Origin: a virus
Length of the DNA stretch: 64,000 nt
Strand: one strand, 5' to 3'
Virus record (IMG/VR): IMGVR_UViG_3300030090_005562
Coordinates: 84,762-148,761 of that record
The notes beneath the pieces are model-generated. The model saw only the letters and a program-made list of their open reading frames with translations. It was not told the origin of the DNA and did no database searches. Positions within the stretch are counted from its first letter, which is position 1, and every line of letters starts with the position of its first letter. Positions 16,751 through 56,896 of the stretch are shown here, one piece after another. Made by a program: the position numbers and the translations under genes.

Positions 16751-16829
16751 GTATCTCTTGTGACCACAACGACTTAGCACTCTGCGGCGTGCCCGCTTCG
16801 ACGTAACTCTTTACGCAATAAGCACTTAC
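16751..16829 (+). repeat. 79-bp double-dyad element 1
   Basis: GTATCTCTTG-tgaccac-AACGACTTAG / 25 bp with gcggcg-t-gcccgc / GTAACTCTTT-acgcaat-AAGCACTTAC. Confidence 0.9.
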
Positions 16830-16857
16830 AACTATTCTGCTTTTTTTTCTTTTTTTC

Positions 16858-16897
16858 TCAAGAATGCTCTTGACTTTTGCCGATAATATATTATAAT
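16858..16897 (+). promoter_or_regulatory. Nested sigma70 and sigma28-like early promoter
   Basis: TCAAG 16858, TTGACT 16870, GCCGATAA 16879, TATAAT. Confidence 0.75.
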
Positions 16898-16942
16898 GGG
16901 GGCATGACAAACAACAATAATACTACTAAGGAAAACAATAAC

Positions 16943-17176
16943 ATGTTTCAAGTAATTCAAACCATCGCTCGCTTTGGCCGTTTCAATCAAGAAGTTATCG
17001 GTAGCTTCGATACAATGAAAGAGGCGGCGGACTTCGCCAAGCGTTGCCACAATGGTAATCCTACTACGTGCATCAAGGATACTGAAAGCAATAAGGTATT
17101 CACCGCCCATAGGGATACCAATGGCACTTCGTTGGTATGGCAAACCGGTCCGATTTTCGCTGACCAAATACTTTAA
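16943..17176 (+). CDS. Hypothetical protein, HNGNPTT family copy 1
   Basis: SD AAGGA; paralog of 18185-18406. Confidence 0.75.
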   Translation: MFQVIQTIARFGRFNQEVIGSFDTMKEAADFAKRCHNGNPTTCIKDTESNKVFTAHRDTNGTSLVWQTGPIFADQIL

Positions 17177-17193
17177 AAAATTATCAGAATTAT

Positions 17194-17234
17194 TCAAGAA
17201 TGCCCTTGACAAATGACGATAATTATATTATAAT
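17194..17234 (+). promoter_or_regulatory. Nested sigma70 and sigma28-like early promoter
   Basis: TCAAG, TTGACA-17-TATAAT, GACGATAA; near-duplicate of the 16858 promoter. Confidence 0.75.
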
Positions 17235-17283
17235 GGCAAACATGACAAACAACAATCAACAACGTTTTGAGAGGTTTAATACT

Positions 17284-17370
17284 ATGAAAGAAATTATCTG
17301 CCAAATTTTGATGCCGCTGTGGGCGGTAGCCGTTGCACTCATTCCGATGGTTGCAATGTTCATCCTCTAG
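17284..17370 (+). CDS. 28-aa hydrophobic peptide
   Basis: MKEIICQILMPLWAVAVALIPMVAMFIL; SD GAGG; own promoter. Confidence 0.6.
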   Translation: MKEIICQILMPLWAVAVALIPMVAMFIL

Positions 17371-17454
17371 GGGATAGCATTAGGGCATCGACCCGCAAGC
17401 CTAGCCCAAGATGCTAGCATAGGTTGCCCCGCCTATTCAAGAAGGGGGCTTGAT

Positions 17455-17533
17455 ACAAAACCTTATGCTGTAAGCACTTAGGGTGGCTCGGCCTGCCCGC
17501 CGTGACGTAACTCTATACTACATAACGGCTTAC
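17455..17533 (+). repeat. 79-bp double-dyad element 2
   Basis: ACAAAACCTT-atgctgt-AAGCACTTAG / 25 bp / GTAACTCTAT-actacat-AACGGCTTAC. Confidence 0.9.
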
Positions 17534-17574
17534 AACTATTATGACTTTTTTTTTCTTTTTTGGTGAAATAGGGC

Positions 17575-17603
17575 TTGTATTTCCCAAACCATTCGATTAA
17601 AAT
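17575..17603 (+). promoter_or_regulatory. sigma70-type promoter
   Basis: TTGTAT-17-TAAAAT; near-identical to 18661-18689. Confidence 0.65.
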
Positions 17604-17787
17604 ATAGTATAAGAAAAAGGGAAAAACATTAAAGAAACAAGCAACAAAATGACGATAATAATAATAGAGAAAACAAACACGTGTGCCCCGCACACCTGTA
17701 GCCTTCCGGCGAGAAGGACAGAAGCGGGTTAAAGAAGATATGCAAACAACAAACAACAATACTCTAACCAAGAAAGGAGAAACAATC

Positions 17788-17952
17788 ATGGATTTTGATA
17801 ATGGTATTTTTCGTACCGTTCCCCATGACACCATCGACGGTGTTGTGTGGTTGGTCCGCGTGGCTGATGGTGAGAGAATCACCTTCTGCCGGACTCAAGC
17901 TGACGTAGATTCCTGCGTCGCTGAGTTGATGCGACAAAGGCTTAGCCTTTGA
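17788..17952 (+). CDS. Hypothetical protein (54 aa), MDxDNGIF family copy 1
   Basis: SD AAAGGAG; paralog of 19811-19978. Confidence 0.8.
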   Translation: MDFDNGIFRTVPHDTIDGVVWLVRVADGERITFCRTQADVDSCVAELMRQRLSL

Positions 17953-18010
17953 GCATCGGCGGGAAACGGGGCTTGACACATTGATTTTTGTTTGGTAGAA
18001 TGAGAGAGTT

Positions 18011-18181
18011 ATGATTGACATTGATAAAGCGATTACAGAACACACCGAAAAATTCGACGCGATGATGGAAAAGCATCGTGCATTAATGGCGAAGCAAGAT
18101 AGAGAAATTGCTGAGTTGCGGAATCAGCTTAATGGGTTGATTGGCGTATTGGCTGATTGTAAATTAGAAATGAGGGATTGA
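18011..18181 (+). CDS. Hypothetical coiled-coil protein (56 aa)
   Basis: Hand-translated MIDIDKAITEHTEKFDAMM...; follows a TTGACA-17-TAGAAT promoter. Confidence 0.6.
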   Translation: MIDIDKAITEHTEKFDAMMEKHRALMAKQDREIAELRNQLNGLIGVLADCKLEMRD

Positions 18182-18184
18182 GTT

Positions 18185-18406
18185 ATGAGTGAATTTTTAC
18201 CCTACGAAGTTCGGCAGACGGTTGTAAGAGACGGGCAATTTTGCACCGCCGTGATTGATGAGGCTTCGACTCTGAACGCCGCAAAGCTAATTGCGTATCG
18301 TTCACACAATGGGAATCCTACAACGCATATTCATTGTGCGTTATCTGGGGATACTTGGGGATATAAGAATAAAGATTGGAGATGGATAAGTGGAAAAAAA
18401 AGATAA
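18185..18406 (+). CDS. Hypothetical protein, HNGNPTT family copy 2
   Basis: Shares V.QT..R.G.F...VI and R.HNGNPTT.I with 16943-17176. Confidence 0.75.
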   Translation: MSEFLPYEVRQTVVRDGQFCTAVIDEASTLNAAKLIAYRSHNGNPTTHIHCALSGDTWGYKNKDWRWISGKKR

Positions 18407-18541
18407 ATCACACGTATTGGTGAAGAAGGATTGCGGTTGGCACTTTGGGAAAACTGGAGGGCCTTGCGAGAAGTGTAAAGATAAAGCGACTTCAATGGCT
18501 GCACAGCGTAGGCTGAAATGGCTCAAGCGGGACTTCAACCC

Positions 18542-18620
18542 GTAACCCCTTGCGGCATAAGCACTTACGGGGCGGCGGGCGGCCCGCCTAGCTCTAACTC
18601 TATATGCAGTAACGACTTAT
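18542..18620 (+). repeat. 79-bp double-dyad element 3
   Basis: GTAACCCCTT-gcggcat-AAGCACTTAC / 25 bp with GCGGGCgGCCCGC / CTAACTCTAT-atgcagt-AACGACTTAT. Confidence 0.95.
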
Positions 18621-18695
18621 GCTATTTTGTCTTTTTTTTTGTTTTTTTGCTCAACTGGGCTTGTATTTCCCAAACCATTCGCTTAAAATATAAGT

Positions 18696-19226
18696 ATGAA
18701 AAACAGTAAAAAAGATTCAAGAGTTGCTACCCTAAATGCCGATAATAATAATATGAAAGCTTTCGTTTTTGATTTTGATGACACTCTTGCGACAACCGAT
18801 TGCTTGGTTGAAGTTATCTTCAATGGTTCCGTTGTTCGTGAACTCACCCCTGCTGAATTCAATACTTTTGAACTAGCAGAAGGTGAAAGCTTTGGATTCA
18901 ATCAATTCAAGGATATTATCAATCCGGTAGCTTTACCCTTGACGCAATTGGCTCTTGATGTACAATCTGAGAATCACAACGTTTTCATTCTGTCCGCTCG
19001 TCCGGTAGAAGCAACCGAAGCAATCAACGGTTTTCTAAAATCAATCGGTATTCAAGCCAAGCGTATCATTTGCGTAGGTGGAAAGCCGGTTGACATTGCA
19101 AAAGCAAAGCGAACCGTTTTAATGTCCATCATTGAGAATCACGAAGTGGTTTGGTTTTTTGATGATGATGATAAAAATATTCAACAGGCTAATAGTATTT
19201 CTGATTTAAATGTGAGGAAAGTGTAA
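18696..19226 (+). CDS. HAD-superfamily phosphatase
   Basis: FDFDDTL (motif I), ILSAR (II), K (III), FFDDD (IV); alternative start 18753. Confidence 0.85.
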   Translation: MKNSKKDSRVATLNADNNNMKAFVFDFDDTLATTDCLVEVIFNGSVVRELTPAEFNTFELAEGESFGFNQFKDIINPVALPLTQLALDVQSENHNVFILSARPVEATEAINGFLKSIGIQAKRIICVGGKPVDIAKAKRTVLMSIIENHEVVWFFDDDDKNIQQANSISDLNVRKV

Positions 19227-19304
19227 AATGGGTTTTACTGATTTGTGTTTCGCTTGTGTTTTCGGCGTTTTGTCCGCTTGGTTGTGGGTAGCCATAGTAA
19301 CGCT

Positions 19305-19383
19305 CTAAACCCTTATGGGGTAACGAGTTACATCGCTGCGGCCTGCCGGGTACTTTGTAACTCCTTATGTAGTAACGACTTAC
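19305..19383 (+). repeat. 79-bp double-dyad element 4
   Basis: CTAAACCCTT-atggggt-AACGAGTTAC / 25 bp / GTAACTCCTT-atgtagt-AACGACTTAC. Confidence 0.92.
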
Positions 19384-19469
19384 GGCGTGCCAAAAGTGAA
19401 AATTCTGTCCGAGAATCGTGCCAAAAAGGCGAAAATCATGCCAAAAAAAATAAATGGGCAAAAACCACT

Positions 19470-19641
19470 GGGGCATAATGCCACGGCGGGGCACAATGCC
19501 ACACCCCCCATGGGGCAAAATGCCACACTATCTGTGATTGTAAATCGTTGCGAGATATTGACTTATAATGTGGGGCAAAACGCCCCAAACGCACTGTGGC
19601 AAAACGCCACGGTTGAAAATTGCGATGGGGCAAAATGCCAC
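19470..19641 (+). repeat. Six 15-bp palindromes G(G/T)GGCAnAA(T/C)GCC(A/C)C
   Basis: Copies start at 19470, 19488, 19512, 19572, 19596, 19627. Confidence 0.9.
19540..19566 (+). repeat. Solo 27-bp dyad (half element)
   Basis: GTAAATCGTT-gcgagat-ATTGACTTAT. Confidence 0.65.
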
Positions 19642-19675
19642 ATGCCAAAAATCAGAGGAAAAGAATTGGCACGCT

Positions 19676-19702
19676 GTAACTTGTTTGATAGTAATGACTT
19701 AG
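19676..19702 (+). repeat. Solo 27-bp dyad (half element)
   Basis: GTAACTTGTT-tgatagt-AATGACTTAG, followed by the usual T-rich tract. Confidence 0.75.
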
Positions 19703-19736
19703 AGAAATATGTCTTTTTTTTTATTTTATTTCCTAT

Positions 19737-19753
19737 TTGGTACGATATATGCA
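19737..19753 (+). promoter_or_regulatory. sigma54-like (-24/-12) promoter
   Basis: TTGGTACG-atat-ATGCA versus consensus TGGCACG-N4-TTGCW; GG-N10-GC spacing exact. Confidence 0.6.
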
Positions 19754-19810
19754 CTATATAGAAGTAACAAGAGAGAAAAACAACAATAACAATTTTAAGA
19801 GGTTTTTATT

Positions 19811-19978
19811 ATGGATTATGATAATGGTATTTTTTGCACAGTTCCCTGCGATAGAGTCGAAGGTGCTGTGTGGGTAGTCCGAAAATCGGACGGTGAAAAA
19901 ATCACCTTTTGCCGTGGATATGATGACGTCATGTTCACGGTGGGTGAGCTGATGAAACAGCGGATTGCCGCCCTTTAG
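19811..19978 (+). CDS. Hypothetical protein (55 aa), MDxDNGIF family copy 2
   Basis: Hand-translated MDYDNGIFCTVPCDRVEGAVWVVRKSDGEKITFCRGYDDVMFTVGELMKQRIAAL; SD GAGG. Confidence 0.8.
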   Translation: MDYDNGIFCTVPCDRVEGAVWVVRKSDGEKITFCRGYDDVMFTVGELMKQRIAAL

Positions 19979-20225
19979 GGTTTAACCCGTAAGCCTACCC
20001 CTAGTCGGTAGCAAAGCTGGAGAGCTTTTCAAGATACTCAGAGGGACTTCCCCCCCTCTTAAAAGATTGGTGGGTGAAGCGGTTTAGCTTGCTACCGTAT
20101 AAAAGGCAAGTCAGCACGCTGCTGCTGGGCTGGAGAGGCGAAAGCCGTTGACCCTTAAATAAGCAATAAAGCAGCAAAAACATTTGACAGAGTTTTGTTT
20201 GTTTGGTAAAATGAGGTTTATGATT

Positions 20226-20468
20226 ATGAGTCAGCAAGAATTCACCGATGCAGTCGCCCGCGTTCCCGCCCTTTGGGGTCGTAAAGTTGTGAGCGTTTTG
20301 GAAGTGACCGATGGTATGGCATCGGTTCGCGTGTCCGGTAATGTTCACGGCTTCTGGGTTCCTGTGGAGAAGTTGGAGCGTGTCGGTCACAAGCCTGCAA
20401 AGCCGAAACTGTATTTCGATGGTGAGTCTTGGGGTACACAACCAGTTAAACGTTCGGAGGTATTTTAA
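20226..20468 (+). CDS. Hypothetical protein, SH3-like
   Basis: Follows TTGACA-17-TAAAAT at 20184; SD GAGG. Confidence 0.6.
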   Translation: MSQQEFTDAVARVPALWGRKVVSVLEVTDGMASVRVSGNVHGFWVPVEKLERVGHKPAKPKLYFDGESWGTQPVKRSEVF

Positions 20469-20930
20469 TGAGTTTCCCCGGTTTACAAGCAGAGGCAAAT
20501 GGATTGGTTTGGTCTGATGAACTTGACCGCTGGGTACATCCTGACGAATTTACTAATGAGAGTCTTGAAGAATTGGAGAACTTGCAAAATGGTTAAGACT
20601 ATTGCAAAATGTTTGCTGTCGTTGTTTGGTTGGTGTGTTGTGATTATTGCGGCTTGGGGCGGTGGTACGTTGTTCGCCGCTTGGATGTTAAATTTTGGGA
20701 GGCCTCTCTAGTATGATTGAGTTACTCAAAGCCCTTGGGCTTGCTTTTTGTTTGGGTTGTGCGTTGGTAATCGGCCCGCTTGTTTTGCAGCTTCACGTTC
20801 AGCACCTTGAGCTTGAGCAGGCAAGACAGGCGGAAACTGTTCTTGGCTGGATTGAAAATGAGGCCAACGACACGAGGCTCTCCGAGTATCGGCCCGATTG
20901 AGTCGCAGCCAATGCGGCCGGATGCGGCGC

Positions 20931-21009
20931 GTAAACCTATGTGTGGTAAGCACTTAGGAGGGCGCGGCCTGCCCGCTTGAGCGTAAACCCTTTGGTAGTA
21001 ACGACTTAT
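20931..21009 (+). repeat. 79-bp double-dyad element 5
   Basis: GTAAACCTAT-gtgtggt-AAGCACTTAG / 25 bp / GTAAACCCTT-tggtagt-AACGACTTAT. Confidence 0.95.
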
Positions 21010-21037
21010 AACTATTTTGATTATTTTTTATTTTTTA

Positions 21038-21078
21038 TAAAGAATTCTGTTGACATGGTCGATAATATATAGTAGAAT
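21038..21078 (+). promoter_or_regulatory. Nested sigma70 and sigma28-like promoter
   Basis: TAAAG 21038, TTGACA-17-TAGAAT, GTCGATAA. Confidence 0.75.
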
Positions 21079-21208
21079 GGTTTTATTATGACAGTTAAGA
21101 AATTTTTGCTACGACTGCGATACACAAACAAAAAACCGCTTGACATTAGTGCGGCTCGATGGTATGCTATGGTCAAGCAATACAACAACAATAAAGAGGT
21201 TTTTGAAA

Positions 21209-21562
21209 ATGAGTGAGATAAAAAAATTGTGGCACTTCCGACAGAACAACAGCGGCGGCAAGTATACCGGACCCGCTTACAATATCGTTGTGGAAGGCGA
21301 CACGATGGACGAAGCATGGGCCGAAGCTGAAAAGCTCGGAGCGACTAACATTGGTAGCTGCTCGTGCTGTGGCGACCGCTGGAATGATGCCAATGAAATT
21401 AAGAGTAGGGACTATATCATTTATCTGGATATGGCAATCGAAGACAGCACTTATACAAGCCAGACGGGTGGAAAGTTTCCGCTGGTTCTCGGTTGTCCTG
21501 AGTGGCGGCGGCTTGAATTTCGTGTCTCTATGGATTATGAGAATTTTGTAAAAAACGCTTGA
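21209..21562 (+). CDS. Conserved phage protein (QNNSGG...CSCCGDRW type)
   Basis: FRQNNSGG and SCSCCGDRW motifs; SD GAGG. Confidence 0.75.
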   Translation: MSEIKKLWHFRQNNSGGKYTGPAYNIVVEGDTMDEAWAEAEKLGATNIGSCSCCGDRWNDANEIKSRDYIIYLDMAIEDSTYTSQTGGKFPLVLGCPEWRRLEFRVSMDYENFVKNA

Positions 21563-21621
21563 CACGGTTTTTTTATCTGGTAAAATATACGAGTAACAAC
21601 AAACAACAGCAGAGGAAACAA

Positions 21622-21903
21622 ATGATTACAATCGACGCAAACGAACGATTCACGCCAGTTGAACAGTGCCGTATGTTTAATGTGGATATGTCTGAATTGA
21701 TGGACCCGAAAGATATTCGGGGAAACAATAAATTTCTGATTCGATGCAAGGCACACAATGATGCGGCTAAAAAAGACCCCGCAAGTGTAGCTTGTAAGGT
21801 CGACCCTAAAACGCATGAAATAATCAGTGGCACGCCCGAACGTATTGCAAACCTCAATGCTCACATGGAGCGAATTCAAAAGGAGATGGAAACGAATGGC
21901 TAA
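21622..21903 (+). CDS. Hypothetical protein
   Basis: SD GAGGA, promoter at 21559. Confidence 0.65.
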   Translation: MITIDANERFTPVEQCRMFNVDMSELMDPKDIRGNNKFLIRCKAHNDAAKKDPASVACKVDPKTHEIISGTPERIANLNAHMERIQKEMETNG

Positions 21904-22057
21904 AAAAGAATTTAGCATCTGCACGTTGGAAAGTGGAAAGTGGAAACAGTGGGGAGCGGGTGAGACCAATATTCAGAACCGCTCTGAGTTGGTCAAGCAT
22001 GTTCAAAAGGTAGCGGTCAAGGCAAACGGTTGTGTTCGAGTCAGGAGAAAATCATAA
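21896..22057 (+). CDS. Hypothetical protein
   Basis: SD AAGGAG; overlaps upstream stop. Confidence 0.55.
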   Translation: MAKKEFSICTLESGKWKQWGAGETNIQNRSELVKHVQKVAVKANGCVRVRRKS

Positions 22058-22058
22058 C

Positions 22059-22292
22059 ATGGAAAACACGGTTGTAGCGTTTGACATTTTCAAACAACTC
22101 GAAGGGTCTTGGATGGGAACCATCCGGCTCAAAAATATCTCGATGAGTAAAATCTCACAGATACATTCTGACCTTGAGCGTCGAGGTGAGAGGGTGCCGA
22201 ATTATTTAATGAAAGCAGAAGGTCATGACGTTGTGTTGACTCTTGACGTTTGCCGAACGTGTAAAGGAACAGGAAAAACAAATGCCAACTAA
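22059..22292 (+). CDS. Hypothetical protein with C-terminal CxxCxGxG
   Basis: CRTCKGTG; SD AGGAG. Confidence 0.6.
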   Translation: MENTVVAFDIFKQLEGSWMGTIRLKNISMSKISQIHSDLERRGERVPNYLMKAEGHDVVLTLDVCRTCKGTGKTNAN

Positions 22293-22458
22293 AAAATATA
22301 TGATTAAAGAGGAGCGACATTATCGCAGGCCGTTGGTCGCTCGTCTGGTAGAATATGCCCTCTGTGCTTATCTGTTTTGTGCTGCTGTTGGTGGTACGGT
22401 AGTCGGTGGGCTGTGGGCGTTTGGCTATCTGGAAATGTGGATGCCGCCAACGTTTTGA
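22282..22458 (+). CDS. Small membrane protein
   Basis: One hydrophobic helix. Confidence 0.5.
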   Translation: MPTKKYMIKEERHYRRPLVARLVEYALCAYLFCAAVGGTVVGGLWAFGYLEMWMPPTF

Positions 22459-22607
22459 TTGAGGGGAAAAATGAAATTTGATTTGATTTTTTTAGCTGTT
22501 GCGTTGCCATTTAACTTTTTTGTTTTTTGGTCAACACCCTTGACGGCTTTAATTGTTTTTGCTACAATGTTGTTATTACGATATGTTTCACCAGTGGGAG
22601 AATGAGA

Positions 22608-22700
22608 ATGGACCCGTACGATTACGATGAACTGTATTTTGATGACGGTCATTATGATGATGACCCGAACCCGTATCACGGGGACTACTCCGAGGAGTAG
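22608..22700 (+). CDS. 30-aa acidic/aromatic peptide
   Basis: MDPYDYDELYFDDGHYDDDPNPYHGDYSEE; SD GGGAG. Confidence 0.6.
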   Translation: MDPYDYDELYFDDGHYDDDPNPYHGDYSEE

Positions 22701-22811
22701 GCTAGAAGCCGGGCCGATTCCCCTCTGCCCGGTGGATACATAAAGCGGTCCCAGTCAAAGCCTCCTAGCTGGAAGGGCTCGACGGTAAGGCTTACCGTGC
22801 CGCTATCTTTC

Positions 22812-22890
22812 ATAACCCGTTGGTGTATATAGACTTACGCCCTGGCGGGCTGCCCGCTGCTCCGTAACCCCTTTGATATTACACACTTAC
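22812..22890 (+). repeat. 79-bp double-dyad element 6
   Basis: ATAACCCGTT-ggtgtat-ATAGACTTAC / 25 bp with GCGGGCtGCCCGC / GTAACCCCTT-tgatatt-ACACACTTAC. Confidence 0.92.
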
Positions 22891-22968
22891 ATAGTGTATT
22901 ACCTAAGCCTACCGGCTAGGGCAGGGCAAAAGCTGCGAGGCCGTGGCCAGGGAAATTTTGAGATTTTC

Positions 22969-23008
22969 TAAAGTTTTTCTTTGACAATGACGATAAATAT
23001 AGTATACT
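22969..23008 (+). promoter_or_regulatory. Nested sigma70 and sigma28-like promoter
   Basis: TAAAGTTT 22969, TTGACA-16-TATACT, GACGATAA. Confidence 0.75.
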
Positions 23009-23014
23009 TAAATC

Positions 23015-23194
23015 ATGAAACGAAAAAACAAAAAACAGTCTGATAAGATTCTGATACGGAAAGAGGATATAAAACCCTCGACCGGTCATAGTCAGCACGA
23101 CAGTGGTAGCGGGTATCACGATGGGCGACCGAAACGACAACGAACTCGGGCCGCACAAAACCGTCAAGCATTAAAGGATTACGATGTACGATAA
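23015..23194 (+). CDS. Basic 59-aa protein, probably leaderless
   Basis: Hand-translated MKRKNKKQSDKILIRKEDIKPSTGHSQHDSGSGYHDGRPKRQRTRAAQNRQALKDYDVR; ATG 6 nt after the -10 box. Confidence 0.65.
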   Translation: MKRKNKKQSDKILIRKEDIKPSTGHSQHDSGSGYHDGRPKRQRTRAAQNRQALKDYDVR

Positions 23195-23423
23195 AAAAAC
23201 TTATTTTATTGTGTCTTGCCGTTGTGGTGACAAGCTAAATAGAGTGAAGTGGTTCAAAAATATATTCGACGCCACTGCTTGGATTGATGGATTAGAGTGG
23301 GCAGTTGGATTTGATGTAGATGTGTCGGTTACTATTGACAAACGGGAAATGCCTGTTAAACTTGATAGTACCCGTCAAATGAGTTTGTTTCCTGTTTTTA
23401 ATGAAGGAGAGTTGAGTAAATGA
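23184..23423 (+). CDS. Hypothetical protein
   Basis: SD AAAGGA; coupled to neighbours. Confidence 0.6.
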   Translation: MYDKKTYFIVSCRCGDKLNRVKWFKNIFDATAWIDGLEWAVGFDVDVSVTIDKREMPVKLDSTRQMSLFPVFNEGELSK

Positions 23424-23755
23424 TTTTTACACGTAAAAAATCGTTGGCCGAGTGTGCCGCTGGTGATGTTGTTGGTTTTTCTTACGGTAATAAGAATACC
23501 AGTCAGGGGCTTCCCCGCCGTCAGGGTACGGTTGTGGAAGTGCGGGATACTCACAAGCACCCGATTGCATCGTCTACTAAGGCGAGCAATAAAATTCAGC
23601 GTAGCCGGTTTTTGGTTACGGTGGAAGATGGGCCGGAACAATATCGGCAGTTTTACGCCGAGGATATTGCAGGTCGTGCGGTTCAGTTTACTTGGTTGGG
23701 TAAGATTCTCAACAACTGGACCCGTAAGGTCGGCATTTCCGGTTCGTGGTTGTAG
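23420..23755 (+). CDS. Hypothetical protein, SH3/WYL-like
   Basis: GDVVGFSYG...RRQGTVVEV...YRQFY; SD AAGGAG. Confidence 0.6.
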   Translation: MIFTRKKSLAECAAGDVVGFSYGNKNTSQGLPRRQGTVVEVRDTHKHPIASSTKASNKIQRSRFLVTVEDGPEQYRQFYAEDIAGRAVQFTWLGKILNNWTRKVGISGSWL

Positions 23756-23926
23756 GGTATCCGTTAGTCTAGAGCAGACGAGACCATGCCTGCGTGGCGT
23801 ATAGAGAAGCGTCCGCACCAATATTGTACTTTCACACCGGCGGTAGGGGATTCCCCGATGCGGTTTCCCCTGCCGTCAAACGTGAAAAGAGTTGACAACA
23901 ACAAAAAAAGGTGTAGAATAGAGACC

Positions 23927-24139
23927 ATGAAACCACGAACACAAAGTTTTTACGTTGAAGCAGATATTGCCAATGATACTGGATATGTTCGCGGTATATT
24001 TATTGCGGTCAATCGCTGCTTGCCTAAACCGTACGGATGCGGTGGAGAAGCGACCGAGTTTAATAATGAGCCTAGCGAGCGTGAATACGCTATGAGTGGG
24101 CTATGTCAAAAATGTCAAGATAAATTTTTTGGAGAATAA
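23927..24139 (+). CDS. Small Cys-containing phage protein
   Basis: CGGEATEF...SEREYAMSGLCQKCQDKFF; promoter at 23892. Confidence 0.65.
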   Translation: MKPRTQSFYVEADIANDTGYVRGIFIAVNRCLPKPYGCGGEATEFNNEPSEREYAMSGLCQKCQDKFFGE

Positions 24140-24140
24140 G

Positions 24141-24290
24141 ATGCAATTGATTTCTATCGGTGGGAAGATTACTATCAAGGGTAAAGAGGCTCGCGTAACT
24201 AATATTACGCAAACCCATGTGCATGCTGTGGACGCAAACGGCAAAACCCACAAGGTAACGCTCAAGGAAGCGGAAACCCTTGTAGGGTAA
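24141..24290 (+). CDS. Small beta-barrel-like hypothetical protein
   Basis: SD GGAG; stop codon lies inside element 7. Confidence 0.65.
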   Translation: MQLISIGGKITIKGKEARVTNITQTHVHAVDANGKTHKVTLKEAETLVG

Positions 24291-24350
24291 CGACTTAGGG
24301 CGAGGCGGGCCGCCCGCCGCATCGTAACCCCTTGCCACACAACGACTTAC
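24272..24350 (+). repeat. 79-bp double-dyad element 7
   Basis: GGAAACCCTT-gtagggt-AACGACTTAG / 25 bp with GCGGGCcGCCCGC / GTAACCCCTT-gccacac-AACGACTTAC. Confidence 0.95.
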
Positions 24351-24450
24351 AGCAATTAAGTTTTTTTTTCTTTTTTTCTCAAGCTGACCCCTTGACAATG
24401 CCGATATATAGTTATAATAGGGGAAACAACAAACAACAAGAGGTGAGAAA

Positions 24451-25242
24451 ATGGAACAAATTATTTACGATGGTCCGCTAGTTTTTGGCAAAGCAAACGC
24501 CAAGCTCAAAGCCCTAGAGAAAATTCACGGCAAGCTGTCAACGTTTTCTGTATTGTCTGGGCATACTTGCCCCTATGCTAAAGAGTGTCACAGTAAGGCG
24601 GTAGTCGTGGATGGTAAGCGTAGGATTCAGGACGGCGAACACACAAAGTTTCGTTGTTTTTCTGCATCGCAAGAGGTGCAGTATGATGGTGTGTATCGTA
24701 GTCGTGCGGGAAACACTCAAATAATTACGGCAGCGGCAAGAGATTGCAACGGGTCTGCTATTGCAATTAGTCGAGCGATTCCAAAGAATACAAAAATTGT
24801 ACGGATTCATGTGGGCGGCGATTTCAAAACGCAAGCCTATTTTGATTGCTGGATGAAAGTCGCAGAGACAAACCCAGACATTCATTTTTACGCATACACA
24901 AAGAGTCTGCCGTTTTGGGTAGCACGCATGGAAGAATTAAAATCAATTCCGAATTTTGTTTTGACTGCAAGCCGTGGAGGTTTTCAGGACAAACTTATTA
25001 AGCAGCACAATTTGCGGGAAGCGGTTGTGGTTTATTCTGAAGAACAAGCAGAGGAACTGGGTCTAGAGATAGACCATGATGATAGTCACGCTGCAAACCG
25101 TGGCGGCAATTTTGCTTTGCTTATTCATGGCACACAGCCGAAGGGAAGCGAAGCAGGCGAAGCATTGAAGCAACTCAAACGTAAAGGTTGGACAGGTTAT
25201 AGTGACAAAGGGAGAAAACAAAATGTCAAAGCTAAAGCGTAA
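24451..25242 (+). CDS. GP88-family (radical-SAM-like, Cys-containing) phage protein
   Basis: ANAKL, TCPYAKEC, CFSASQE, VRIHVGGDF, FYAYTKS. Confidence 0.75.
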   Translation: MEQIIYDGPLVFGKANAKLKALEKIHGKLSTFSVLSGHTCPYAKECHSKAVVVDGKRRIQDGEHTKFRCFSASQEVQYDGVYRSRAGNTQIITAAARDCNGSAIAISRAIPKNTKIVRIHVGGDFKTQAYFDCWMKVAETNPDIHFYAYTKSLPFWVARMEELKSIPNFVLTASRGGFQDKLIKQHNLREAVVVYSEEQAEELGLEIDHDDSHAANRGGNFALLIHGTQPKGSEAGEALKQLKRKGWTGYSDKGRKQNVKAKA

Positions 25243-25456
25243 GCAATACTGCTGGGCGATGGACCCGCACGCAGAGGGCTATTGTTGTGTGTTTGTCTAT
25301 ATTAGACGGAACGAGAAGGACACGAACGACGAAGAGGTACGGCTAGAATTTGATAACCCGAACGCTTCGATATCGTTCCACAAACTGCTAATCGAGGCCG
25401 GTTATAAATTCAAGCAGGTTAAAATTGTGACCACCCCCGAATGGGTGAAGTATTAA
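25223..25456 (+). CDS. Hypothetical protein
   Basis: SD GGGAG. Confidence 0.6.
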   Translation: MSKLKRKQYCWAMDPHAEGYCCVFVYIRRNEKDTNDEEVRLEFDNPNASISFHKLLIEAGYKFKQVKIVTTPEWVKY

Positions 25457-25486
25457 AAATTCTCCTTGTTGTTGTTGTTTGTTGCC

Positions 25487-25565
25487 CTAACCCCTTTGTG
25501 CGTAAGCACTTAGGGGCTAGCGGCCCGCCCGCCGCGCCGTAAACCCTTGCCCTGTAACGACTTAC
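25487..25565 (+). repeat. 79-bp double-dyad element 8
   Basis: CTAACCCCTT-tgtgcgt-AAGCACTTAG / 25 bp / GTAAACCCTT-gccctgt-AACGACTTAC. Confidence 0.95.
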
Positions 25566-25690
25566 GACGACTCTTTATTTTGTGAAAAAAAAATTTATTT
25601 CTCTAAAGAAAACCCCCTTGACAGGACGATATATTAAGTATAATAAGAGCATGTTAGTTGGTTATGTAAGTTTTTTAGGAGAATGTGTTT

Positions 25691-26929
25691 ATGAGTGAAC
25701 AACTTGGAAACGGTGTTAAGGTTGGCGAAGCTGGTTCGCACTTTACAGACAGTCAAGCGAAGGCGAAAGACTTTCGCAACGTGTCTAGTATCTGGGCGAG
25801 CAAGTGCATCTCTTTCGATGAAGGTCTGGAAAAGCTCAGCAACGAGCAGTCTGTTATCGAGGATTTTCGTGAGCCTCTTTCCGCGTTCGATACCGTTGTA
25901 ACTGACAAGGGCAAGTTTGCAATTCGCAAGAAGTCTACCGGCAAGGATTATATTCCTACGCCGCACGCCCTACGTCAAATGGCGGTAGCAGGTCAAACGT
26001 CTGCGTGGATGTTCGAGGATTTGTGTACCGATAAAGTCGGCACCAAAAAGGGTGAGGAATTCAAGTATCGACGCGATTCGTCAGATGCGGGATTGCTCAA
26101 GCGTATCGTTGACCATACTCTATTCAATGGCAATCGGTTCGACCAAGACAAAACCCGTTTGTTCCGCACTTGGAAAAATGGTAGTCTGCGTGCTGTTCTG
26201 TCTGATAAGTATGCAATCGTGAATAATGAGTGGTATCTTGAACTGCTCAAAAAGTTGGTTCCAGGCGGTCTGTTGTCCCACTGGCGTGGCGATGCTGACT
26301 CCCTCTATGGTAACATTCTGATTCCCGATAGTATCCGACAGGAAACTGATTCGGCCTATGGTGCGATGTTGAGCGTGGGCAATAGCGAAATCGGTATGCG
26401 GCGAATCTCGAACCTGCCGTCTGTCTTTCGAGCAATCTGCATGAATGGTTGCATCTGGGAGCAAGAGTCTGGCAAGAATGTTCGTCAGGTTCACCGTGGG
26501 GAATTGAATCTTGACCAGTTGGAATATACTATCAAGACCAATATCCAGGCCCAAATTCCGCTGCTCAACAAGGGGATTGATACCCTGCTTGATACTCGCA
26601 GTCGGACGTTCGGTGATGTCTCGGTTGACCAGATGCTTGCCGCTACTGCAAAGCAGTACAAGGTAAGTCGTACCGATATGGTTGGAATCCGCAAAGGTTT
26701 CGACGTAGAGGTTGGAATTCTTGGGACCGATGCTCGTAGCTCGTTTGGTCTGATTAACGCAATCACCCGCCACAGTCAGAATTGTGAGCCTGATGCGTGG
26801 GTATCGTTTGACCAACTCGGCGGTCGTCTTTCGCAACAGAGTGAAAAACAGTGGGGGAATCTCAAAGCCCTCGGCAAAACTTTCACCGAAACGAAGGACG
26901 TTGAGAAGTTGATTGGGCTAAATGTCTAG
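25691..26929 (+). CDS. DUF932-family protein
   Basis: RAVLSDKY, NSEIG, FRAICMNG, RQVHRG, FGLINAITR. Confidence 0.8.
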   Translation: MSEQLGNGVKVGEAGSHFTDSQAKAKDFRNVSSIWASKCISFDEGLEKLSNEQSVIEDFREPLSAFDTVVTDKGKFAIRKKSTGKDYIPTPHALRQMAVAGQTSAWMFEDLCTDKVGTKKGEEFKYRRDSSDAGLLKRIVDHTLFNGNRFDQDKTRLFRTWKNGSLRAVLSDKYAIVNNEWYLELLKKLVPGGLLSHWRGDADSLYGNILIPDSIRQETDSAYGAMLSVGNSEIGMRRISNLPSVFRAICMNGCIWEQESGKNVRQVHRGELNLDQLEYTIKTNIQAQIPLLNKGIDTLLDTRSRTFGDVSVDQMLAATAKQYKVSRTDMVGIRKGFDVEVGILGTDARSSFGLINAITRHSQNCEPDAWVSFDQLGGRLSQQSEKQWGNLKALGKTFTETKDVEKLIGLNV

Positions 26930-26958
26930 TCTCCATAGCGGGGATAATCTGCCCCGAA

Positions 26959-26995
26959 GGGGGTTGGGGAATTTTCCCCGCCCCCTACCTTTTTT
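26959..26995 (+). terminator. Intrinsic terminator
   Basis: GGGGGTTGGGGA...TCCCCGCCCCC then T tract. Confidence 0.7.
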
Positions 26996-27132
26996 ATTAA
27001 AGTTGACAACGTTGGATTGTCGATGTATAATAGGGGATTGGAGGCTATGCCTATGGAAGAAACTTTGTTATTGTTAATTGGTTTGACAGGTGTTATAGTT
27101 GGTTGTCTTGAATCTATTAGGGGAGATTTAAA

Positions 27133-27576
27133 ATGAGAAAAGTTTTCGTATATTACAATTTACACAAGCACAAATGGTCCGTAAAGGATGTAAAAACAGG
27201 GCGTGTAATTGGCCATCATTACGAAGTATCGCTCTATAACGCCAAGTTCAAAGTAAGTGAGGCCGGAAGGGCTCGCGTTTTAAAAGAGAAGCGTAAAAAC
27301 GTCCACGCGGGCGTTGAGGGCTATCTGACGAAGCATGCCCTGCCTCGAAAAATGGACGGCACGATTCTCTGGGAATCTCAATCGGAGCGGCACAAGGTAA
27401 CGTATGACCCCTACAAGTACGATACCTTTGTGACCGTCTCTGATAAGGAGCCTATCCACAAAGCCTACTTTGTGAGAATGGTGGCCTATGGTACGAACTG
27501 GGACGGTAAGGGGCAGTATCATGCCCCAGATGTTACAGCGGTGGTGCCGGTGGTGAAGGGGCTGATAACTGCTTGA
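27133..27576 (+). CDS. Conserved phage hypothetical protein
   Basis: VYYNLHKHKWSV, FKVSEAGRARVLKEKRKNVHAGVEG; stop 1 nt before element 9. Confidence 0.8.
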   Translation: MRKVFVYYNLHKHKWSVKDVKTGRVIGHHYEVSLYNAKFKVSEAGRARVLKEKRKNVHAGVEGYLTKHALPRKMDGTILWESQSERHKVTYDPYKYDTFVTVSDKEPIHKAYFVRMVAYGTNWDGKGQYHAPDVTAVVPVVKGLITA

Positions 27577-27577
27577 C

Positions 27578-27656
27578 GTAAACCCTTATGGCGTAACGAC
27601 TTAGGGGGCGGCGGGCGGCCCGCTTGAACGTAAATGGTGTGATGACAACGACTTAC
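27578..27656 (+). repeat. 79-bp double-dyad element 9
   Basis: GTAAACCCTT-atggcgt-AACGACTTAG / 25 bp with GCGGGCgGCCCGC / GTAAATGGTG-tgatgac-AACGACTTAC. Confidence 0.95.
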
Positions 27657-27704: not shown

Positions 27705-27777
27705 GCACCTGTAGCTTAATGGATAAAGCAACGGACTTCTAATCCGTAGACTGAAGGTTCGAGTCCTTCCAGGTGTA
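27705..27777 (+). tRNA. tRNA-Arg(TCT)
   Basis: Acceptor GCACCTG/CAGGTGT, anticodon arm ACGGA-CTTCTAA-TCCGT, T arm GAAGG-TTCGAGT-CCTTC. Confidence 0.95.
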
Positions 27778-28167
27778 CTACCCCTTCCGGCCCCATAAGT
27801 CTCGGCATAGTCTCCAATAGTGATAGTCAGCGAGTTTTTGGGGTTTGTATAGTCTGATGAAGAGCAGGGAAAATGAATTGGGAAAATTTATTTGTCTCAG
27901 CCAAGGCTGTCAGACAGGATAATCCAATAGTCAGCGAAAGTCTGGAGCATCTGGTGACATCTATAGTGTAGTAAGTGTCTGAGCATATACGGAGAAAGGA
28001 ATGGGTCATGAGTGTGTGTCTCACGCAATGCAGCAGCAGAGCGGTCATAGTGATAGTCAGCCAATTTAAGTCTCACCCAACCCCACCCCATCGGTCTTTG
28101 TAGATAGTCAGCCAACATTTATGACATGTGCGGTTGACAAAAGCAGGAAGAATGAGTATAATATTAG

Positions 28168-28681: not shown

Positions 28682-29620
28682 GTCTCAGCTAAACGACCGC
28701 GAGGGCCGTGATTGGTCATAGTCAGCCAATTTCTATAGCATGTAGAATAAATGCGGGCGTGGAAGAGATTAGTGGTAAGACTAAGACAAGCCCGCAAGCC
28801 ATCGCTAAGATAACTCTCCACTTTCTTGTCATAGAATGTGATTCTAGTAATATATTATAACCCAAAACATAAATTTGTCAACTTTTAGGAGAAAAAACTG
28901 GTGCTTAAAAAAGTGTGTACTTAGGCATTGGTCTAATAGAGGGAATAAGGAATCATAATAGCAGGAGGGTTCATATTAGCGGTATGTATCACATAGGATA
29001 TATTATCATCTCCCTGCTATAAAAAGTATATAGTGTATATTGTAATTCAGTATTCTATCTGTATGGACATATTATCCCCCTGGCAATTTTGCTCCAAAAA
29101 AAACAAAATCGACTTCCCTTATTTTCTCAAGTAACAGAATATAAGAGCCTTGGGCCAGTACGGACTCACCACTCCCAAGGATTTTCCAAATTACCTCATT
29201 TATAGGAACTCAGGGCCATTGTAGGCGAGGTTCTATTCCTTTGTGCATATTGTGGCACTATATCATCTACTTATACCTATTATAGGCCCATAATCATTTC
29301 TGTCAATCAAAAAAAGTGGTTGACATATACATTCTTCCTGCTATAATTACATAGAAAAGCACCTTTTACGGGTTTACGAAATAAAAATGTGGGTTTTTGA
29401 CCCTTGTTTGCACGTTTATGCGGCAAGTTTGTGGGTTTATGGCCCTTTTATTGTCTCGTTGCGTATGGCCGAGGTTGGAGCATTTATTCTGTTAATTCAT
29501 ACCCAATCTCCAATCTCGCCCTACGCTTCTATTATAGTGTATAGTATGGTATGTTATAGGTACTATGCCTATTGTTCTTAGTTATACTACTATATGAAAA
29601 GAAAAGAAAAGGTGAGAAAA

Positions 29621-53296: not shown

Positions 53297-53917
53297 ATGC
53301 CTGTAGTTATGAAGGACATTGATTTTAACAAGAGAAACAAGAACGATTATGAAAACAATTCAAACGAGATGTATTCTTTAAAACAGTATACTAACATTGC
53401 CAAGAAGTGCATATCAAAGTTTTCCGGAGATGGTGTATCTCACTCAATGTTAAAAAGCGAAGATGCAATTTCTCATGTCGCTGAACATATCATGTGGGGT
53501 CACGTAAGGTGGCGCGAAGATGGTGGAAGGGCCTTAAAAAGCTACCTTAATCAGTGTGCGATATGGGCTATAAAGTCGTGGAAGACAAAGATTTATAAGA
53601 ACGAAGATATTGCATCTCTTAATTACTGCAAACCAAGCGAAGCTGCCGGAAGAGAAACACAGGCGTATCAAAATGTACAAGATAAGAAGTGCAAAGAGCC
53701 GTTTGAGCTTCTTTATAATAATAATTTGTCAGAAATGAAATCTCTCATTGAGAGCAAATGCTTGACAAAACTTCAAAGTAAATGCCTTTACGAAAGATAC
53801 GTCGAAGGAAAAAAACTTAGGCAAATAGCAGAAACACTTTGTGTGAGTAGACAGGCAGTAAACCAACACATCAGTAAGGCTGTTAAGAAGTTGAGGAAAG
53901 AAAATGGGATTTGTTAG
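53297..53917 (+). CDS. Phage sigma70-family-like factor
   Basis: LKSYLNQCAIWAI (region 2); LRQIAETLCVSRQAVNQHISKAVKKLR (region 4). Confidence 0.8.
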   Translation: MPVVMKDIDFNKRNKNDYENNSNEMYSLKQYTNIAKKCISKFSGDGVSHSMLKSEDAISHVAEHIMWGHVRWREDGGRALKSYLNQCAIWAIKSWKTKIYKNEDIASLNYCKPSEAAGRETQAYQNVQDKKCKEPFELLYNNNLSEMKSLIESKCLTKLQSKCLYERYVEGKKLRQIAETLCVSRQAVNQHISKAVKKLRKENGIC

Positions 53918-55725: not shown

Positions 55726-56405
55726 CATCTAGCAGAAAAACGAACAGCGAGCTTATAAACGATGTTCACAATTTTAGCTTAAATGTAGAGACAAGAGAAA
55801 TCTTTCTAAATAGTCACATCGCAGATTGTGAAGAAGAAGCTGGCGTAGATTGGCGTATGGCTACAAAGTTTAATAAGAACATTAGACTTTTAACATCTGG
55901 CCCACAAGCAGAGCAACCAATACTCATACACATGCATACTGTGGGTGGTAATTGGGAAGACGGTCTTGCTATATACGACATAATTAATTCCTGCACAAAT
56001 ACACACATAACTATAATTGCATACGCTCATGCTAGGTCAATGAGCAGCATTATCTTTCAAGCCGCAGACACCAGAATATTCATGCCAAATTCTATATGGC
56101 TAATGCACATGGGTGACATGGGTTTTGATGGTCAGGCTCAGTCATTTGAGGCAGAAGCGGAGTGGGCTAAAAAAGACCACGATAGAATGCTTGACATATA
56201 CACTGAATCGGCGTATGGTAGTGTAGCTTACAAAGGAAAAAGCAGAAAGCAAATTAAAAACTTTATAGACAGGGGTCTACGGCTAAAGCAGGAATGGTAC
56301 ATGTCTGCCAGAGACGCAATAGAACATGGCTATGCAGACGCTGTTTTTGGAGACCCTGGATATGAAAGTATGGAAGCAATTAAAAAAATAGGAAAAGAAA
56401 CTTGA
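55722..56405 (+). CDS. ClpP-like protease subunit
   Basis: HTVGG...GLAIYD, ARSMSS, WLMH, WYMSARDAIEHGYAD. Confidence 0.88.
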   Translation: MTSSRKTNSELINDVHNFSLNVETREIFLNSHIADCEEEAGVDWRMATKFNKNIRLLTSGPQAEQPILIHMHTVGGNWEDGLAIYDIINSCTNTHITIIAYAHARSMSSIIFQAADTRIFMPNSIWLMHMGDMGFDGQAQSFEAEAEWAKKDHDRMLDIYTESAYGSVAYKGKSRKQIKNFIDRGLRLKQEWYMSARDAIEHGYADAVFGDPGYESMEAIKKIGKET

Positions 56406-56896
56406 AGCACGTTACCGACGAAGAATTTGAAACAGCATATAATAATCAAGACAACAAAAATATAATAAATGCTGTAACAAAAAAATACGCAAATAAGCTG
56501 TCGAAGGATACTCAGACCTCTTGCGGCCTTCATGGATTATGGAGGTGCATACAGAGTCATGACGATAGCTACGGTAGAAAGTTTACAACCAGCCTCTTCA
56601 TACACGTTGACTGGGAATGTAAAAGAGAAATTAGCTATCTGAACAGAAAGAAGCTTGGTCAGTTGGGAGACTCCGATGATGATATTGTGTCTCCGGTTCC
56701 TAGCGGCGAAGTTTCTGAGATACTAGAATCTTTGCCCGAGAGAGAGAAGGAGATGATGTATCAAAGATTCTATGAAAACAGGACTCTTGAGGAGATTGGC
56801 GAAGGGCAAGGCTACAGCAAAGAAGCCGCTAGGCAAAATATAAACAAGATTATATCTAGGCTACGAGAAAATATCTCTGAAGATTTTGGTGTATAA
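56402..56896 (+). CDS. Phage sigma70-family-like factor
   Basis: GLWRCIQSHD...KFTTSL; LPERE...RTLEEIG...SKEAARQ. Confidence 0.82.
   Translation: MKHVTDEEFETAYNNQDNKNIINAVTKKYANKLSKDTQTSCGLHGLWRCIQSHDDSYGRKFTTSLFIHVDWECKREISYLNRKKLGQLGDSDDDIVSPVPSGEVSEILESLPEREKEMMYQRFYENRTLEEIGEGQGYSKEAARQNINKIISRLRENISEDFGV

Follow-up and report, generated by a model that had tools for sequence, protein, structure and literature searches.

The window analysed here, the whole 64,000-nucleotide stretch spanning bases 84762-148761 of a 148,761-bp IMG/VR virus record (G000; approximately 60% complete by estimate), contains nine copies of a 79-bp element in which a GC-rich linker is held between two 27-bp boxes. 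The nine repeats hold up as genuine and are members of a widespread, hitherto undescribed family found in uncultured marine phages, and the element on balance probably constitutes an upstream control module that is helically phased and acts on duplex DNA, most likely a predicted protein-binding activator or operator situated upstream of host-type early promoters. The carrier is a large tailed phage: the window encodes a terminase, a portal, an rIIA-like protein, sugar-modifying enzymes and three tRNAs, with the genes on the plus strand from approximately 10.9 kb onward. When compared with 50,697 phage records, the terminase found its best match in Bacillus phages, at 27% identity over half its length, and no close cultured relative of the carrier was found in this comparison.

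All nine elements lie in one orientation, each measures 27+25+27 bp without indels, and the intervals between them are 625–2012 bp. The box consensus, GTAA-N4-TT-N7-AA-N4-TTAC, is a 27-bp quasi-palindrome, and a conserved GGGC-N-GCCC core is located exactly midway between the two boxes, the centres of which are 52 bp apart, corresponding to five helical turns. The 13-bp palindrome at the centre is perfect in elements 3, 6, 7 and 9, while the seven-base cores of the 18 boxes are all different. Each element comes after the end of a gene, with elements 3, 7 and 9 overlapping or abutting the stop codon. A first-pass annotation of this DNA had described the nine co-oriented elements, their starts, the perfect palindromes, the differing cores and the intervals, all of which were recovered, and had noted the contact with a preceding stop codon for elements 7 and 9, to which element 3 can be added. 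A weight matrix built from the 18 window boxes scored them at 21.6–36.4 bits; in 20 shuffles of the whole 148.8-kb record, the per-shuffle maximum averaged 14.8 bits and the highest value was 19.7 bits. The same annotation had proposed a profile search of the rest of the genome, and boxes were found only at window positions 16751-27656, with no score above 12 bits anywhere else in the record. Two weaker solo boxes are present within that region, flanking a separate cluster of small palindromes. Copies within one genome are 60–73% alike and share only short identical runs. The features of the region are as follows.

16751..16829, plus strand: element 1 (box, GC-rich linker, box), with the -35 hexamer TTGACT 40 bp past its end.
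16830..16897, plus strand: phased T-run spacer and sigma70-type promoter of cassette 1, an arrangement repeated after elements 5, 7 and 8.
17455..17533, plus strand: element 2, with a weak promoter-like TTGTAT-N17-TAAAAT 41 bp past its end.
18542..18620, plus strand: element 3, its first letters overlapping the stop codon of the open reading frame (ORF) 18390-18545, with the same weak promoter-like block at 40 bp.
19305..19383, plus strand: element 4, with a degenerate central palindrome, followed by the small-palindrome cluster and no promoter.
19540..19566, plus strand: solo 27-bp box within the palindrome cluster (19.3 bits).
19676..19702, plus strand: solo 27-bp box ending the palindrome cluster (19.6 bits), followed by a T-run.
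20931..21009, plus strand: element 5, with the -35 hexamer TTGACA 40 bp past its end.
22812..22890, plus strand: element 6, with the -35 hexamer TTGACA 90 bp past its end.
24272..24350, plus strand: element 7, overlapping the end of ORF 24096-24290, with TTGACA at 41 bp and a 15-nt spacer to TATAAT.
25487..25565, plus strand: element 8, with TTGACA 52 bp past its end and a 15-nt spacer to TATAAT.
27578..27656, plus strand: element 9, starting 2 bp past the stop codon of ORF 27133-27576, with the -35 hexamer TTGACT 1 bp past its end.
27705-27778: tRNA-Arg, driven by the promoter after element 9 (-35 TTGACT).

The cluster of small palindromes (window 19384-19675) is built from three TGCCAAAA words plus six 15-bp palindromes that follow the pattern GGGGCA-N3-TGCCAC, with the right box of element 4 and the two solo boxes as punctuation. 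The same arrangement is found in the related locus L047, and the cluster is a candidate origin or regulatory hub.

A first search pattern, built on the centre of the element, recovered a second IMG/VR phage (G001, 91 kb) with six copies of the same geometry as in the window, each 28–30 bp ahead of a consensus promoter. A looser pattern found real copies in five IMG/VR contigs and in at least 120 marine metagenome contigs, many of them with 2–5 copies; the marine metagenome and IMG/VR contigs among the matches listed make up the 543 kb of family loci used below. A symmetrised box matrix detected 698 boxes in these loci and one in shuffled sequence. The distance to the next box was 52 bp in 281 cases and 53 bp in 23, with other spacings rare, so that the geometry which the first-pass annotation had suggested looking for in related contigs is conserved, and its rigidity does not derive from selection by the search. 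Among 185,579 species genomes, the composite pattern matched seven places. A single one of these is a genuine element; it lies on a 1.7-kb contig of phage-like character (L040) in a metagenome-assembled genome of Planctomycetaceae whose boxes are confined to that contig. The other six matches were rejected as chance, their contigs holding no boxes. The 25 single matches of a strict single-box pattern in IMG/VR were likewise not accepted as relatives, as approximately 23 are expected by chance. A blastn search with the element plus spacer against the 50,697 phage records gave nothing meaningful. No Rfam family matched the element at or above gathering thresholds (the window matches were tRNAs only), and the box words were not found in the literature searched, which agrees with the earlier statement that the element is not a described family.

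Each phage has one array, of 6–14 elements, in a region of small genes. G005 (162.7 kb, 98% complete), which shares 62 ORFs with G000, has ten elements located solely across the record ends, their polarity matching two divergent arms of small genes; G004 has approximately 14 within 15 kb, and the six of G001 lie at the record end. G000 and G001 have only seven ORF matches, mostly sugar enzymes, and the element is therefore present in at least two nearly unrelated phage lineages. In relatives, the box usually continues into GAC on its left side and into GTC on its right, and the half-sites are of two types at positions 5–6, either GT or A/C followed by C/T. The element has a polarity that a true dyad would lack: the (BA,BA) arrangement occurs 56 times and inverted arrangements 4 times. 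Family-wide, the letters at box positions 13 and 15 tend to be identical instead of complementary (mutual information 0.39), with ATA, GTG, CAC, TAT, CCC and GGG as common triplets at the box centre and a core following TT-RY-NNN-RY-AA; such identical letters may reflect a bendable centre.

The polarity of the element tracks the promoter. As orienting the elements by flanking ORF content on short contigs proved unreliable (60 agreeing, 51 disagreeing and 127 ambiguous), orientation by promoter was used instead, a promoter being called as a sigma70-type match of at least 10/12 within 130 bp of an element. Promoter-oriented elements showed the (BA,BA) arrangement in 38 cases and the reverse in 3, and 141 of 241 unique elements had a promoter on exactly one side, with none having promoters on both. 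In the window, a sigma70-type promoter follows elements 1, 5, 6, 7, 8 and 9, with the -35 hexamer at 40, 40, 90, 41, 52 and 1 bp, respectively, whereas elements 2 and 3 share only the weak match at 41 and 40 bp. The earlier description of the intervals as T-tract, promoter, leader and genes accordingly holds for elements 1 and 5–9, and not for elements 2 and 3 or for element 4.

Across the family, the distances from the element end to the -35 hexamer cluster at 19, 29–31, 39–41 and 50–51 bp, and the gaps between these classes are nearly empty. The best-fit period is 10.4–10.5 bp (R = 0.78), a value reached by none of 2000 uniform nulls, and the phasing was unchanged in the 56 sequences left after dereplication at 75% similarity, even though spacer sequences differ widely inside each distance class. 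As expected for a face-of-helix site, promoter distance is tolerated in steps of the helical repeat only, and the quantised distance indicates a face-of-helix function on duplex DNA. The spacers are made up of runs of A or T, whose centres fall near -6, -17, -27 and -37 relative to the -35 hexamer, and A-runs (36 elements) and T-runs (43 elements) are interchangeable, which points to a property of duplex curvature rather than an RNA U-run. A 40-bp spacer puts the midpoint of the right box near -89, that of the GC centre near -115 and that of the left box near -141, and the other spacer classes move all three centres by whole helical turns.

Several further motifs accompany these promoters. TAAAGTTT and GCCGATAA-like words, corresponding to the sigma28 consensus, are interleaved with the sigma70-type -35 and -10 hexamers at window 16858-16897, 22970-23008 and 24380-24418, and in most family promoters. 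The word G[CA]CGAT is found in the promoter spacer of 74% of element-linked promoters versus 36% of element-less ones, but the latter set includes chance promoter matches and the contrast is uninformative. Relatives also have perfect copies of a sigma54-type motif, TGGCAC-N5-TTGC; 22 of 34 unique matches stop exactly 13 bp short of a box and are directed into the element (approximately 1.5 matches expected by chance), e.g. L055:988, L075:990, L113:540, L076:5201, L138:3118-3186 and L157:1694-1762, the last two with three tandem copies at 26-bp steps. The motif occupies the spacer, antisense to the sigma70 promoter, and is not found in the window's own 148.8-kb record. In G001 (L027 14239-19403, minus strand), the ATG is located approximately 7 nt past the -10 hexamer, suggesting that the early mRNAs are leaderless or nearly so; the window has CAA-rich leaders.

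A role for the folded strand was assessed in an alignment of 137 elements (A2), in which a three-hairpin structure was compared with 500 column shuffles. Pairing was found in 72.8% of cells versus 73.9% in the shuffles, all 500 of which reached the observed value, and the covariation score of 0.075 was below the shuffled mean of 0.087. Mutual information was near zero and pairing equalled expectation at arm positions 5/23, 6/22, 7/21 and 8/20; neither the central positions 34/46 and 35/45 nor a long hairpin of the left box with the right box gave any pairing signal. As the variable positions carry no mutual information, the pairing stems only from the conserved palindromic letters. A shared RNA fold was rejected, since RNAalifold keeps only the 4-bp centre and single-sequence minimum free energy folds vary from copy to copy. 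The element thus most likely works on duplex DNA and not as a folded strand, which bears out the preference of the first-pass annotation for double-stranded DNA sites over RNA hairpins. One of the two explanations it had offered, a multi-protein operator on double-stranded DNA, fits the absent covariation, the 52–53 bp rigidity and the 10.4-bp promoter periodicity alike.

In view of these data, a role at the RNA level is also very improbable; under that reading, three hairpins closing the upstream cassette would terminate its transcript, mark it for processing or stabilise its 3' end. Such a role would suit the element's position directly after stop codons and a centre able to form a 5–6 bp G/C hairpin, and the PeSL stem-loops of T4-type phages, described below, were shown to end transcription in RB49 (PMC2839356). 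Yet beyond the absence of covariation, the G/C hairpin is not followed by a U-run as in an intrinsic terminator: the T-run begins approximately 37 nt later, and 36 family members have A-runs in its place. A consensus terminator scan of the window found none at any element. By a strict test, a canonical intrinsic terminator abuts the upstream edge in 7 of 128 elements (a few more by eye), and in those elements termination is supplied separately. There is no Rfam match, and the phasing of the -35 hexamer has no explanation in RNA.

If the element is a control module, its parts can be assigned as follows. The boxes are putative sites for a dimeric DNA-binding protein, with the centre serving either as a third site or as a stiff spacer, and the 52-bp distance of five helical turns would place both boxes on one helix face. 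The link between module and promoter would be intrinsically bent DNA composed of phased runs of A or T, and as the spacer appears to vary in length in steps of one helical turn only, a box-bound factor would keep the same rotational setting relative to RNA polymerase. Such a fixed setting can be likened, as a textbook analogy, to that of class I activator and Fis sites. Class I CAP sites and Fis sites with an UP element (rrn P1) work upstream at integral helical turns, and the likeness extends to a location far upstream of the -35 hexamer on one helix face, A/T-rich DNA in between and distance steps of approximately 10.5 bp. The box fits neither the CAP nor the Fis consensus, however, and here two long sites and a GC centre form a fixed 79-bp unit.

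A number of observations weigh against this interpretation. No strong promoter was found near 100 of the 241 unique elements, some of which lie at contig ends. In the window, element 4 has no promoter, and the -35 hexamer 1 bp from element 9 is approximately 3 bp out of phase. The phasing could in part stem from growth of the spacer by duplication of a 10–11-bp A-run unit, in which case it would reflect curved DNA and a promoter rather than the boxes. Of the 16 strong promoters listed for the early region of the window, 7–8 have an element and about half do not, which implies that the module is not needed for promoter function and that the element singles out the leading promoter of a cassette rather than accompanying all of them. 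The invariant box letters are mutually complementary, and a short conserved hairpin recognised by its sequence could thus still form. Candidate binders present a further difficulty. Two window proteins, 53297-53917 (206 aa) and 56402-56896 (164 aa), have a C-terminal helix-turn-helix of sigma70 region 4 and no detectable sigma70 region 2, but were rejected as binder because they are not common to all element-bearing phages: the latter has a homologue in G005 only (30% identity) and the former has none. Intersecting the gene contents of G000, G001, G004 and G005 yielded no DNA-binding candidate, none of the seven G000/G001 ORF matches is an evident DNA-binding protein, and the search for candidate binders yielded no sigma54-activator domain. 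Box enrichment, which would be expected in a host whose protein binds the boxes, was seen in none of 301 Planctomycetota genomes, a phylum that may not be that of the host: 20 had 1–3 box matches and 8 had a match to a control pattern. The first-pass annotation had pointed to this phylum as a place to search, a lead that the genomes did not bear out.

Since two almost unrelated lineages share the element with no detectable shared candidate protein, any binder is more likely to come from the host than from the phage. A broader proposal, which we regard as rather unlikely, is that unrelated marine phage lineages have exchanged the 79-bp unit horizontally as a portable, enhancer-like docking platform for a host protein. 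Such a platform would serve several promoter classes (sigma70-type with sigma28-like boxes, and sigma54-type in some relatives) and, if real, would couple the early cassettes to a host activator, which might be an enhancer-binding protein, from the very first minute of an infection.

Some other role on duplex DNA, unrelated to promoter strength, is quite improbable: the element might act as a supercoil or transcription insulator between tandem strong promoters, as a roadblock for read-through polymerases, or as a set of binding sites for a protein involved in organising or replicating this part of the genome. The restriction of elements to the first promoter of a cassette, with internal promoters lacking them, would be in keeping with this, as would the single array per genome and the solo boxes punctuating the small-palindrome cluster with its possible origin or hub function. 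The phasing of the -35 hexamer points instead to an interaction with the promoter complex, although a roadblock or boundary role could coexist with it.

Each element heads a promoter-bearing cassette and in this way also marks cassette boundaries in evolution. Gene order is mostly conserved in relatives, with elements at orthologous junctions, and whole-cassette differences between relatives adjoin elements: L047 is without the HAD-type cassette found between elements 3 and 4, and in L053 and L113 other genes are joined to an element-headed cassette. A cassette hot spot lies at window position ~22458, where two adjacent genes are parted in three relatives by three different inserts, each composed of an element, a promoter and a small ORF (L090:3141-3446, L113:2170-2560 and L155:1380-2190); a 7-nt direct repeat, lying outside the boxes, borders the insert in L113. 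In a survey restricted to relatives of at least 80% identity, 36 non-redundant indel breakpoints were no nearer the boxes than random placements (p approximately 0.3–0.9 at 30–150 bp). No match to Phage_integrase (PF00589), Resolvase or Y1_Tnp was found in this record, which is only approximately 60% complete and is the only one covered by the Y1 transposase search, and no Phage_integrase or Resolvase match in G001, G004, G006 or the 98%-complete G005. The cassette genes most common beside elements in relatives are 24451-25242 and 27133-27576 (30 and 23 loci), which belong to the Pfam families GP88 and Phage_L5_gp82, named after mycobacteriophage early-arm proteins of unknown function.

The first-pass annotation had read this organisation as possible cassette shuffling served by a recombinase. 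The cassettes and their differences beside elements stand, while the recombinase mechanism found no backing, and it is exceedingly improbable that the boxes are core-type sites at which a tyrosine-recombinase-like or integron-like enzyme moves cassettes in and out. A tyrosine-recombinase core site has two inverted arms around a 6–8 bp core that is identical in partner sites, and the layout of a 10-bp arm, a 7-bp core and a 10-bp arm resembles it, just as the cassette organisation fits; but the 18 window cores all differ and cores vary freely across the family, as the earlier annotation had argued in disfavour of core recombination, and no cognate recombinase was found. Its proposed checks for breakpoints inside the elements and for a tyrosine recombinase in the full record gave no excess at the boxes and no such gene, respectively. 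Integron attC sites act as folded single strands, in which the pairing between R''/L'' and L'/R' is conserved, and are served by the IntI integrase; here neither the integrase nor a bottom-strand folding constraint of this kind was seen. The unenriched breakpoints and the absent recombinase lead us to regard the boxes as cassette heads and not as demonstrated crossover sites.

The closest known analogue of the element is the PeSL (promoter-early stem-loop) of T4-type phages, in which a G/C stem-loop is followed by an AT-rich stretch and then by a strong sigma70 promoter, all between small variable early genes, and which has been implicated in cassette exchange (Arbiol et al. 2010, PMC2839356; Comeau et al. 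2014, PMC4122927). PeSLs coincide with gene insertions, deletions and replacements that distinguish relatives, and they give rise to mini-circles. In both systems a repeated intergenic composite is found in a small and variable early-gene region, with a strong sigma70-like promoter, AT-rich DNA upstream of the -35 hexamer and cassettes that differ beside the repeats. In contrast to PeSLs, the G/C motif is here held at fixed distances between two conserved 27-bp boxes, one of which lies between the GGGC-N-GCCC core and the AT-rich stretch, and shows no pairing covariation, its outer stem positions varying without compensation. The promoter distance is quantised by the helical repeat and breakpoints are not enriched at elements. 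Moreover, the carriers are not close to any cultured phage and, going by the terminase match of the window, are not T4-type, although an rIIA-like gene is present. What is new relative to the PeSL is the pair of boxes at a fixed distance and the helical-phase rule, in unrelated phages.

It is correspondingly unlikely that the element is in essence a PeSL-like linker, i.e. a repeated terminator-plus-promoter block of mainly evolutionary consequence, whose copies travel with the cassettes while general recombination of the phage between copies inserts, deletes and swaps them. The PeSL order of G/C stem-loop motif, AT-rich stretch, near-consensus sigma70 promoter and small genes of unknown function is kept, the differences in L047, L053 and L113 and the three element-plus-promoter-plus-ORF inserts at ~22458 are of the type such exchange produces, and occurrence in two lineages sharing almost no genes is as anticipated for a mobile block. 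Copies that are only 60–73% alike with short identical runs are nevertheless a poor substrate for homologous exchange, the 36 breakpoints are not drawn to the boxes, and the one clean case resembles loss between the 7-nt direct repeats outside them. Nor would a linker of this kind explain the strict 52-bp geometry over hundreds of diverged copies or the 10.4-bp phasing of the promoter.

Two further repeat systems were compared with the element. The stoperators of cluster A mycobacteriophages are single 13-bp sites, read by one protein, the immunity repressor of temperate phages. Like the elements, they are many co-oriented asymmetric sites at gene junctions across an early arm, and the GP88 and L5 gp82 assignments of the two cassette genes recall mycobacteriophages as well; the difference is that the unit here measures 79 bp and sits upstream of its own promoter, with no evident repressor or integrase. 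Repetitive extragenic palindromic (REP) sequences and bacterial interspersed mosaic elements (BIMEs) occur in hundreds of copies in bacterial chromosomes and are mobilised by a RAYT (Y1) transposase. They resemble the element in being mosaic intergenic repeats of imperfect palindromes with a conserved 5' tetranucleotide and fixed-length linkers, from which the single true element in 185,579 species genomes, the lack of a RAYT-type transposase in the record and the missing hairpin covariation set it apart. By the tests applied, the element falls outside the tyrosine-recombinase sites, attC sites, REP/BIME, intrinsic terminators and every Rfam family.

Early transcription in uncultured marine phages is almost unknown, and the element offers a defined cis-element with hundreds of natural variants, the fixed geometry and helical-phase rule of which provide a testable model for how the first phage genes are driven or timed. 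In metagenomic phage contigs, it can serve as a sequence tag for the early region and the direction of transcription, and should a host protein prove to read the boxes, the element might also be of use in tying phages to their hosts. The integron-like interpretation is tempered by these results: cassette turnover occurs, yet the boxes have not emerged as recombination sites.

Just 3' of the last element and the tRNA genes, within the otherwise plus-strand region, the window also contains two minus-strand sigma70-type promoters, both perfect 12/12 matches, at 28854-28881 and 29279-29306.

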